A stretch of 64,000 bases of DNA, taken from the NCBI GenBank assembly GCA_964187785.1, contig OZ076409.1:15812001-15876000 (forward strand). The letters run 5' to 3'. Shown one piece after another: positions 26,717-29,700 of the stretch. This DNA is from Amphiscolops sp. MND2022. Its lineage: Eukaryota. Under the pieces are notes generated by a model. It did no database searches and was not told where the DNA came from. It saw only the letters and a list, made by a program, of their open reading frames with translations. Numbering within the stretch: position 1 is the stretch's first letter; every line of letters begins with the position of its first letter. A program made the translations under genes and the position numbers.

Positions 26717-29700
26717 ATGGAAGAGGATTTCGATCTTCCCCCGCTCATTCCTGCTCCAGTTTCAGGGTTCCAAAGTGGTCATGATACCACTTATAATTGG
26801 TCCGAGGACGATATTATTGCCTCAGGTACGGAATGTAGACGGACAGAATCAGGTTGGTAAAAATCTTTCTGACTTCCATGGGTATTCGGACTATTATTTT
26901 GGTGATCAGCCTTTTTAGTCTTACCCGTAACTCTGACGCGTCTAACCAGATCTTGATTTTTCAGTAACTCAACCTGTAGTAGTTGCCAGCAATGCCGGTG
27001 GTCTTCTGGATGCTCCTCCTTCTGCCCAAACCGTTCAACTACCGTCTCTATCCTTCATTTTGCAGCCAGAGGCTTCTTCTTCCTGTACTGCAGGGATTGT
27101 AGAGCTTGTTACCGGCGGAGTTGATACGGAGTTGCCTGTTGAGGGACCTTCTGTTGTCGAGTCCGGTGCCATAGCGGTTTCTCCTGAGCTTGAGTGCTTC
27201 TCTGTTACTCAGTGTCAGCAACACCCTTCAGATGAGTCTCATGAAAGTGAGACTGATCCCCCCTCTCCAGAAAAAGGGACTGGTTAGTTCAGGCCTTTTC
27301 TTTTTCATATCAGTTCGTTGCTTTCACTGTAAGCACAACGTGAATGTTCATGTTGTAGCTTCAAAGAAAAATACTCCTCGACGGACTGTTGTGAATTTTG
27401 CACCGACACCCAAACGAGGCAAGAAAGTGTCGCTGCCTTCCTCTTCAGCGGCACCTATGGGAGGGTGGAGTAGTTAGTTTTTGTTTTCTTTGATCGCATT
27501 GGTCGTTTGTTTGTTCGTTGTTTTCTGGGTATGATCATCGTGTTATGTTTTGTCTTAGGTTTAGATGATCTACCAGGTGGCTCCGGAGGTATTTCGTTGA
27601 GTCCGCAGGATATGTTCCGACTGGGCCAGCAACTTGTGGACGAGATTGACAGTCGGGCTGCAAAGACTATTCAAAGCGGTATGTACTTGTATTGTATTTG
27701 GATCTTGTCGCTTTTTGGGTCTGTCGCATTTTCTTTGTTTGTCCTCCGTTTGTTGTGCGTTGTGTTATTGAGCGTTGATCTTTAACTTTTGCCACCATGG
27801 TGTAAAGTATGTTTTTATTTAGGTTTCGAAAAGTTGACTGAGAAGGTAGGCGGGAAGCTCAGTGGCCCTAAGACGAAAAAGTACAGCAGCCGAAACTATT
27901 TGCATAAGCGGATGCTGGGGCTGAACCCTCTGTTTCAAGATTTTGTTAGTGGCCCGAAGAATGGACGTGGAACTCATTTCTTTTGCAAAGTGTGCAAAAG
28001 AGATGTCGCCATGAAAGCTCATGGTTCTGGAGAGTTCGGGCGGCATTTTTATTCTCCTGGGCATTGGAACCGCGATGTGACGTACCGTGTACACATGGGG
28101 CTCCCGATCTACAATCGTCTAATGGAGCCAATGACTCTGTCTGCCGCTCAACTTGCGGATTTCCGTTCACGCCCATTTGAAGATCTCGGTGAGGGTTTTC
28201 CATTCCCTGAGGATTTGGTGCCAAAGCGGGCGCGCATTGAATCGAAGGTGCCTTACATGACTCTGGTGGCTTCTCTCTGTGACTTTCTTCGCAGTGGTGG
28301 CGATTTCAATCTGGTACGCCGGTTGTGGGGTTACTTCCGTGCAACGTTGGGTGAACGGCAGCCAGATTTCTCGTTCGAGTGGAGTCGATCTGAGACTGTT
28401 GTTAGTATAGTTGTTGGTATGGATAGGTGTGTTATTTGACGTACTTGCAACTTTTGTCTGTTTTTGATAAGAATAGAGATATATATGCGTGTCTGGGGGT
28501 GTACATTTGTATGACTTTTTGGCACCATTTTTCTTTATCGGGGGAGGGGCCTGGGTTTGTTGTATCTTTCACCGGTGAGTATAGTCTGTATTTGTTTCAG
28601 TCTTTCCTTTGCCAAGGAGTTGCTCCGCGGGCCCTCCGTTTGGTAGTGAGCAGAGTGACTGGTGAGTCAGAGTATTCCCTTCAGTTCGAGAAAGACAGTC
28701 AAGTGGAGTATTGTTTCATCGTTTATTGGGACGAAGACAAGCTGAAGAAAATTTGTGTGGACATACAATCACTGGATGAGGAATTGCCTAACGCTGAATT
28801 GAAACCCATCGCACGTTTATTTTTCGGGTTGGAGTCGCGACGGTTGCCTATGGTGGTTCGTGGTGCCAGTCCGTCTTTAATGCGAGTGTTGGGCGACAGA
28901 CGTGACGATTCTCGTCGTTTTGTTGTGTATCAGCGTTTTACAGAAGAGGTGTTCCTGGAATGCTTTCAGCGTGCTCACCAAGATGTTTTTGGCATGGTAG
29001 AGATTGTCACGTTGGTTGAGTTCATCGTTCAAAGGATGAAAAGCGCTGTGTATGAAGATTGGACTGAGGGTAAGCCCCTGCTCCGCAAGTGTATCCGTAA
29101 TGGATGCGTCAATTTTTGAGAACTTCGCGGACTTGACTGAGTTGTGGCATATAATACGACCGTATATCCGTTGTACTGGGCTACCCTATGCCAAAGAGAA
29201 AGCAGATCGTGTTAGTACATTCCCTTGTGTTCTTTTGTTATATCATATCGAGTGGTGTTGATTCCTGTTGTTGTGTCTTTTAGATGCGCGGTACTGAATT
29301 GTACGTCGTTTCCGATAAGATGATGATTCATCGGTTCGGGCTGCTACGTTTGGTTCTCGATATGTGTAAGTAACACTTTGATGGTTGTTTGAACGCGAAT
29401 CGTGTTTGTGAGTTCGTCTATGATTGATTTCCGTTTGCTTCTCGTTTGATTTTTCTGTTCTTTGTTTGTGATTCTGAGATGTTTCTGAGTTTGATAACTG
29501 CTGTATCATTATTATTTTCGTTTAGTTTACGTGAACTTCGTGAAGGCGCAGCAGAGACGTTATGACTACGATTTTCCTTGTTTTGGAGAAGTCTGCAACT
29601 TTGTGTATTGCTTGCTAATGAAGACTCGTGAAATCAATGCGTTGCCCAGTATCCATCAATGGGAAGAGTACATGAGTGTGGAGAGTGTGGAACGGTTTCC

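Follow-up and report, generated by a model that had tools for sequence, protein, structure and literature searches.

A conserved hairpin with a covarying palindrome in Ty3/Gypsy retrotransposons of Amphiscolops sp.: a probable genomic RNA dimerisation or packaging signal

Palindromic signals in described systems

In retroviruses, the stem-loop 1 (SL1) dimerisation initiation site (DIS) of HIV-1 and the DIS of mouse mammary tumour virus (MMTV), Mason-Pfizer monkey virus (MPMV), murine leukaemia virus (MLV) and avian sarcoma-leukosis virus (ASLV) present a short palindrome on a hairpin (PMC5874298, PMC4066764, PMC12789967). The HIV-1 loop is described as nine nucleotides long, with two purines ahead of the six palindromic bases and a single purine after them (PMC4066764); its natural variants remain palindromic (GCGCGC/GUGCAC), and in MLV and MMTV several palindromes can contribute (PMC5874298, PMC4066764, PMC12789967). 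Here we compare with these systems a conserved element found in 64,000 nucleotides of DNA from Amphiscolops sp. MND2022 (assembly GCA_964187785.1, contig OZ076409.1, positions 15,812,001 to 15,876,000 of the forward strand), referred to below as the window. The element occupies intron 1 of a gene that runs antisense to Ty3/Gypsy retrotransposons, and consists of a hairpin beside a covarying 8-nt palindrome (the 8-mer). Judging from sequence comparison, we consider it likely, with a probability of roughly 0.65, that it is a dimerisation or packaging signal on the genomic RNA of this lineage.

For long terminal repeat (LTR) retrotransposons, sites of RNA dimerisation and packaging are described as poorly defined even in yeast Ty1 and Ty3 (PMC3592414, PMC4974528). 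Palindromes have likewise been proposed to dimerise the RNA of Ty1, namely PAL1-3, and a 2012 paper still calls the Ty1 DIS undefined (PMC3592414, PMC4974528). The PAL sequences are 6-mers within the first 430 nt, inferred from SHAPE chemical probing (selective acylation of 2'-hydroxyl groups, read out by primer extension) (PMC3592414, PMC4974528), whereas the element described here is recognised from evolutionary covariation, belongs to Gypsy and lies on the 3' side. Palindromic stem-loops away from the 5' leader are reported to dimerise the genomes of pea enation mosaic virus 2 (PEMV2; the ATS), hepatitis C virus (HCV; the dimer linkage sequence, DLS) and coronaviruses (the stem-loop 2 motif, s2m); these are not retroelements, and the roles reported are control of transcription or replication, not co-packaging (PMC10484742). 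Retand/Grande-type Gypsy elements, which are from plants, likewise have a long region between pol and the 3' LTR with an antisense transposase-related gene (PMC11963269), and the terms intron, dimer, packaging and secondary structure do not occur in the main text of that source. A full-text literature search, with most subscription journals outside its coverage, returned no description of such a signal in any Gypsy retrotransposon, animal included.

The element resembles the retroviral sites in carrying a short palindrome on a hairpin, in that variants of the 8-mer stay palindromic, and in having a further palindrome, a 6-mer in the apical loop, comparable to the several palindromes of MLV and MMTV. 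In predicted genomic-strand folds, part of one of its three clades (clade 2) also has a 9-nt loop with flanking purines, as in HIV-1. It differs in that the stricter palindrome is the 8-mer beside the hairpin and not the apical 6-mer, and in being known from sequence alone.

A conserved and covarying element in intron 1

The window holds three copies. Copy B (26850..26976) of this rod-shaped element is proposed to act on the genomic strand, here the minus strand; within the antisense gene it covers the final 3 nt of exon 1, the whole of intron 1 and the first 12 nt of exon 2. Its intron (26853..26964, plus strand) is a predicted phase-1 GT-AG intron, its GT at 26853 and its AG at 26964 bringing the start codon at 26717 (ATG) into frame with the open exon 2. 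Copy A lies at 10976..11100 on the plus strand, there the genomic strand, with its 8-mer at 11009-11016, its apical 6-mer at 11043-11048 and its intron at 11097-10988 on the minus strand. Copy C (51345..51481, plus strand) is a diverged member of clade 2, missing from the preliminary description of this DNA, with its 8-mer at 51375-51382 and an imperfect apical loop at 51418-51423; the intron of its antisense gene is on the minus strand.

The preliminary description had estimated that A and B are about 89% identical within diverged surroundings, and this was borne out. Aligned over 128 columns, B (26849-26976) and A (11101-10976) share 115 identities, with 11 mismatches and two one-base gaps (89.8%), and the surroundings are 43-72% identical per 100 nt, near a shuffled baseline of 55%. 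Between A and B the block is the best-conserved stretch of more than 100 nt, the runner-up being a coding match at 66%. The nested pairings proposed earlier are all present: CAGGTTG (26850-56) with CAACCTG (26970-76), AAAATC (26860-65) with GATTTT (26955-60), TGGGTA (26879-84) with TACCCG (26922-27), and the compensatory pair GACTA/TAGTC in B against GACTG/CAGTC in A. The inner hairpin (26879..26927), defined by covariation and fold prediction, contains the helices GGGTA/TACCC and GACT/AGTC and presents the apical-loop palindrome TGATCA (26903..26908), a proposed second contact. The 8-mer, GACGCGTC (26935..26942), lies in a large one-sided loop and is the proposed main site of intermolecular pairing. 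Both palindromes, of at least 6 nt, are predicted to be exposed in these loops, by computed accessibility together with covariation. They carry the main signal, and had been overlooked.

Folding of single sequences is modest (z-scores of -1.25 to -2.17); the evidence for structure is the comparison across families. In the 1.07 Gb genome searched, the core pattern occurs 791 times, against once for a reversed control, and more than 1,300 places in all match a pattern of the element. The clade-1 set comprises 126 loci in 37 families, among which the median pairwise identity is 86% for the element, 55-60% for five flanking segments and 55% for the shuffled baseline. In 520 of 666 clade-1 family pairs both flanks are less than 62% identical, and the median for the element is still 86%. 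When loci were sampled by nothing but an exon motif, the element was found upstream in 29 of 30, the exception being L147. Protein searches brought up two deeper clades: clade 2, about 50% identical in a zinc-finger-like exon, and clade 3, at 31-36% identity, in which a single exon of 800-900 codons encodes most of the protein and intron 1 is kept (L276-L305). The stems of clades 2 and 3 have no sequence alignable with clade 1, yet all three clades share the order stem, apical loop, stem, short linker, 8-mer (in clade 3 at 29 of 30 loci, the exception being L282), and in all three the element is always in intron 1. No homologous loci beyond this genome were found in the metagenome or viral contigs searched. 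The proteins P0055, P0156 and P0177 have no close match in this genome (best about 62%, about 40% and about 39%).

Stem structures were named by hand, because RNAalifold on MAFFT alignments recovered the inner helices only. The paired fraction in clades 1 and 2 is 94-95%, against 29-48% in slid controls, a control that hand-named structures are favoured to pass. Two-sided changes occur at 12 of 23 pairs in clade 2 (21 sequences) and at 7 of 38 in clade 1 (26 sequences), palindrome pairs included; in neither clade did any of 500 shuffles reach the count. Clade 1 is not above shuffles for further pair types (168 of 500), and relatedness of the sequences inflates some covariation measures. Clade 1 shows one compensatory change in the helix that connects exon 2 with the 5' splice site; clades 2 and 3 have no such helix, and from family to family the splice sites take different positions with respect to the hairpin. 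The explanation that the preliminary description had named as fatal, a single gene-conversion tract between A and B, fails against the family pairs with diverged flanks and against covariation that, for pairs with two-sided change, exceeds all 500 shuffles. We conclude that the element is real and selected, as a structured nucleic acid.

The 8-mer is GACGCGTC in most families, in all three clades. At the family level its alternatives are GTCGCGAC, GGCGCGCC, AACGCGTT and GACTAGTC, each differing from GACGCGTC at two mirror positions, and the five multi-copy types are all perfect palindromes; AACGCGTT is a 10-nt palindrome when its flanks are counted. A sixth type, CGGGCCCG, occurs in two near-identical neighbouring copies of a long-branch family, and GTTTGCAT, once read as the 8-mer of L121, was a misreading, the correct 8-mer being GACGCGTC. 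When 51 family representatives are placed on a tree, a single change accounts for each of the two alternatives seen in more than one row, AACGCGTT and GTCGCGAC. With a chance of 1/7 per event that a double change falls on mirror positions, the probability is 0.02 for AACGCGTT and GACTAGTC together, which were found after the palindrome hypothesis had been set down, and 4e-4 for all four. Half-sites vary (GAC, GTC, GGC, AAC) and the centre varies (GC, TA), and symmetry is retained; the idea of an invariant GC dyad was overturned by GACTAGTC.

Counts over the genome agree with this. In a genome-order sample with the two middle bases left free, 97 of 100 places have a self-complementary centre (70 GC, 27 TA). 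The first 100 rows of the palindrome census represent 77 distinct places, of which 15 were set aside by eye as other repeats with their sequences unfetched; a palindromic 8-mer is present at 54 of the 62 element-like places (42, 9, 2 and 1 of four types), and the eight non-palindromic places, all fetched, are single copies or two local duplications, several of them visibly decayed. A clade-3 10-mer was read in 65 of 100 rows, with one change in 2 and unrelated sequence in 33. All fetched loci together give 275 palindromes in 289 resolved contexts after correction of three misreads, a count that leaves aside seven unresolved contexts, may include double counting and is deliberately enriched in non-palindromic copies. 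None of the 8-mer types folds alone, and their computed homoduplex energies are -9.3 to -17.5 kcal/mol (GACTAGTC, -10.6). The apical loop is TGATCA in 124 of 131 clade-1 sequences, AGGCCT in 50 of 79 from clade 2 (where it can otherwise be described as a GGCC core) and TGGCCA in 22 of 26 from clade 3. Its centre in clade 1 is AT, and TGATCA and TGGCCA are related by a mirror double change.

Comparison with known RNA families (snoRNA, ribozyme, riboswitch, microRNA), as the preliminary description had proposed, gave no identification: Rfam covariance models have no match at gathering score in the window, and over six loci the single match (E 4.8) lies outside the element. Hammerhead, hairpin, hepatitis delta virus (HDV)-like, box C/D, H/ACA, selenocysteine insertion sequence (SECIS) and spliced-leader motifs, compared by eye with their known cores, do not fit. 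A mirtron or microRNA precursor, whose near-perfect hairpin should end at the splice sites, does not fit either, given the large asymmetric loops and hairpin ends that do not track the splice sites across clades. A tiny transposon with terminal inverted repeats was rejected, since every family has the element at one and the same place in the gene and only clade 1 has the terminal repeat.

Mosaic families are frequent, with junctions clustering at a promoter island, which lies at about -500 relative to the 8-mer, and at the element's edge towards exon 2; near the element they lie at +5 to +111 in 5 of 10 clade-2 cases and at +25 to +70 in 3 of 29 clade-1 cases. A unique recombination hot spot is not supported, the junctions being spread along the region. 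Because junctions are found both at the edge of the element and away from it, they give no evidence for or against dimer-linked switching. Separately, L382, L384 and L385 have tandem duplications of 1.1-4.2 kb that include the element and bring two copies close together.

Host retrotransposons and their non-coding derivatives

The host elements belong to Ty3/Gypsy by their reverse transcriptase (RT)-RNase H-integrase order, TG...CA LTRs, primer site and target duplication. Element B (23469..35740, minus strand) has LTRs at 23469-25584 and 33625-35740 that are 99.5% identical, a 5-bp target duplication and a primer-binding site at 33613-33624; RNase H and integrase are present and most of gag and RT is deleted. 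Its antisense multi-exon gene (26717..30712, plus strand) lies between integrase and the 3' LTR. The gene appears to be hAT-transposase-like: an alignment-guided model of a clade-3 homologue (pLDDT, predicted local distance difference test, 72.7) gave Hermes hAT transposase as the top 11 Foldseek matches, which are weak (E 0.001-0.02). Pfam and PDB sequence searches left the protein unnamed, the ESM Atlas gave only leads scoring below 0.9, to hAT-derived families, and a single-sequence fold (pLDDT 37) was unusable. Head to head with this gene, just before the 3' LTR, is a small, fast-evolving sense open reading frame (ORF) of 230-350 codons (window 11780-12484 and 25685-26224, the latter broken in B) with no Pfam match. 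Between the two lies a promoter-like island of TGACGTCA boxes (26443..26486).

We examined 20 kb around 15 family representatives, 13 of which were mapped as full-length elements of 15.6-16.6 kb; L200 has no flanking LTR pair or RT, and L302 a partial LTR match only. In all 13 the 8-mer lies 9.9-10.7 kb past the primer site and 1.1-1.6 kb ahead of the 3' LTR, and in 12 the family's own 8-mer is single-copy. The first AUG of gag is inside the LTR, 343-400 nt upstream of the primer site, in 12 of 13. The primer-binding site is within coding sequence, since gag begins in the LTR (in the window, 33625-34006). No GC-rich 8-nt palindrome near the primer site is common to the clades among these 13 elements.

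Two lineages of mini-elements have lost gag-pol and most of the antisense gene and kept the structure. All nine places with GACTAGTC in the census belong to one non-autonomous LTR element family of clade 2 (L346-L355), about 5.1 kb long, with LTRs of 1.6 kb that are 96.6-99.8% identical in seven mapped clean-ended copies and 92% in two others. It has a primer site, a purine tract and 5-bp target duplications, and no long ORF. Its 1.8 kb interior matches autonomous elements in islands only, namely the primer site, a scrap of RT, the conserved structure (74-81% identity), a TGACGTCA-rich region and the purine tract; DNA adjoining the structure has no match to autonomous elements, boxes related to TGACGTCA persist, and the remnant of exon 1 has in-frame stops in all four subfamilies read. 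An independent clade-1 lineage of 4.4 kb, with a scrap of integrase, also keeps the structure; it turned up at 3 of 30 loci taken in genome order and at 4 of 20 that were selected (L367, L368, L371, L377, L072, L079 and L087). Most of them retain a short open exon 1, unlike the rearranged relative L079. After deletion, the 8-mer of minis lies 0.44-0.95 kb past the primer site. L346-L355 and L367-L377 lack an intact gag-pol but possess LTRs, a primer site, a purine tract and a target duplication, and are therefore classed as non-autonomous LTR derivatives similar to large retrotransposon derivatives (LARD) or terminal-repeat retrotransposons in miniature (TRIM). The structure has been carried through recent mobilisation without the proteins, which marks it out as one needed in cis. 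The clade-2 mini is abundant (for example G000:C1:10062300-10072299), some copies being in tandem and sharing an LTR, with short tandem repeats beside the promoter island; L072 and L079 share a 320-nt block, which one has on one side of the structure and the other on the other side.

Elsewhere in the window, element C is an older Gypsy insertion with a copy of the antisense gene (LTR starts 39749 and 52675; LTRs 94% identical). Past its 3' LTR are ORFs with a DUF1759 domain (54689-55882), which we take to be a Bel/Pao-type gag. An open frame of 559 codons (61590-63269, minus strand) has no Pfam match, and minisatellite-like clusters of short direct and inverted repeats lie at 16934-18006 and 5858-6957.

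Acting strand, mechanism and alternative explanations

The strand on which the structure acts gives a mixed picture. The earlier statement that G-U pairs favour the strand of the antisense gene holds for clade 1 and fails for clade 2, which leans to the genomic strand: its inner helices show 16 G-U against 5 A-C, the z-score is lower on the genomic strand in 19 of 22, and the 8-mer opens more easily there in 16 of 21. Genomic-strand loops are purine-rich, and 6 of 22 clade-2 representatives are predicted to fold on that strand with a 9-nt apical loop in exactly the HIV-1 arrangement given above, which clades 1 and 3 do not show. We favour the genomic strand mainly because genomic RNA is reported to be dimeric in Ty1 and Ty3 particles (PMC4974528).

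On the proposed mechanism, the stems would keep both palindromes, the 8-mer and the 6-mer of the apical loop, free of pairing. Given that the 8-mer is unable to fold on itself, we propose that it forms an intermolecular duplex between two RNA copies, like a retroviral kissing contact, with the apical 6-mer as a possible second contact, and that Gag would select and package the RNA dimer. The intron may serve as a non-coding shelter for the signal, since gag, which begins inside the LTR ahead of the primer site, leaves no room for non-coding sequence between itself and that site. A bolder extension, which we regard as possible but somewhat doubtful, is that the lineage shifted its dimerisation signal to the 3' side, into the intron of a captured antisense transposase, and that the palindrome acts as a family barcode for co-packaging and recombination, the mini with its private GACTAGTC pairing with itself and not with a helper.

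A number of results weigh against a dimerisation signal on genomic RNA. In clades 1 and 3 the signs are mixed or point to the gene strand: the z-score is lower on the genomic strand in only 3 of 12 from clade 3, the 8-mer opens more easily there in only 6 of 25 from clade 1, conserved U-G pairs lie on the gene strand in both, and a stricter strand count on multi-copy hairpins gave one gene-strand and two genomic sites, which is too few. The apical palindrome is imperfect in whole families, being TGGCCT in 26 of 79 clade-2 sequences. Retention in the minis indicates a role in cis and not dimerisation as such; they also keep promoter-like DNA and splice-site-like ends, so that a role in antisense RNA is possible, and the clade-1 minis L367-L377 retain a short open exon 1. 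Retroviral DIS typically lie near the 5' end (PMC12789967, PMC5874298), unlike the present element, about 10 kb past the primer site in an antisense intron. The central GC dyad kept by retroviral DIS is found in five of six 8-mer types, with TA at 27 of 100 places; the abundant variant GACTAGTC lacks it. The element would work like a retroviral DIS, yet we do not file it as one, because both the 5' location and the invariant GC centre fail.

The structure could instead act on the antisense transcript, as a switch of splicing or intron retention or as a stable intronic RNA, with the palindrome pairing antisense RNAs or pairing with a protein dimer. Its constant place in intron 1, even in clade 3 with mostly one long exon, would suit such a role, as would the exact end of clade-1 conservation at the helix over the 5' splice site and exon 2 start with its one compensatory change, the conserved gene-strand U-G pairs, and the promoter-like boxes and splice-like ends of the minis. 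However, the splice-spanning helix is missing in clades 2 and 3 and splice sites move relative to the hairpin, an intron, once excised, has no obvious use for an 8-mer that pairs with itself, minis, in which the antisense gene is deleted or broken, should be able to do without a product acting in trans, and no Rfam family matches; we consider this explanation unlikely. Of the three options in the preliminary description (splicing switch, intronic non-coding RNA, or packaging signal on the opposite strand), its general claim of a functional RNA element stands as a selected structured element and the packaging-type signal fits best, while a splicing switch has become less likely, because the splice-site-spanning helix is clade-1-specific and the structure survives in minis with the antisense gene gone or broken. 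Less probable again is a protein-binding element on the genomic RNA resembling the Rev response element (RRE) or constitutive transport element (CTE), acting in nuclear export or in capture by an accessory protein of the retrotransposon; its palindrome would then suit a symmetric dimer of RNA and protein and not the start of genome packaging. Export elements typically have a 3' position and a long bulged rod, features that, with cis retention in minis, suit the element, and the retrotransposon also encodes two uncharacterised accessory proteins. Kissing loops formed by palindromes away from the 5' leader are reported to serve purposes other than packaging in an umbravirus, HCV and coronaviruses (PMC10484742). 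Yet the stem sequences are nearly all replaced between clades, what lasts is the self-complementarity of the 8-mer, and mirror-image changes are unneeded for protein recognition alone.

That the 8-mer is a symmetric DNA site, bound by a dimeric protein (a host factor of basic leucine zipper (bZIP) type or the hAT-derived protein) and acting on the nearby bidirectional promoter, we regard as improbable. Palindromes are strand-neutral, the 8-mer is about 450 nt from the TGACGTCA boxes, which minis also keep, and the homologue of the antisense protein is predicted to have the Hermes-like fold noted above; but half-sites and centre vary while symmetry persists, the covarying, G-U-tolerant stems around the 8-mer are left unexplained, and the site is single-copy in 12 of 13 elements. 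We think it very improbable that the block has no function and was merely homogenised by recurrent recombination or template switching between families. Mosaic families exist, and some have junctions where the element ends, but most family pairs (520 of 666) are diverged in both flanks, junctions cluster elsewhere too (about -500), and copying cannot yield compensatory changes or a shared architecture across clades without alignable stems; the cross-clade covariation already contradicts it.

The reading as a genomic dimerisation or packaging signal provides a candidate of about 130 nt that is marked by evolution, in which the natural palindrome variants are built-in specificity controls. If true, it would place the signal at the genome end opposite to the retroviral norm, and would account for the keeping of intron 1 in three clades. 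The identity of the DIS palindrome is reported to limit recombination between HIV-1 subtypes (PMC3187697); if the reading is right, it suggests that palindrome identity may likewise restrict recombination between families of these retrotransposons.

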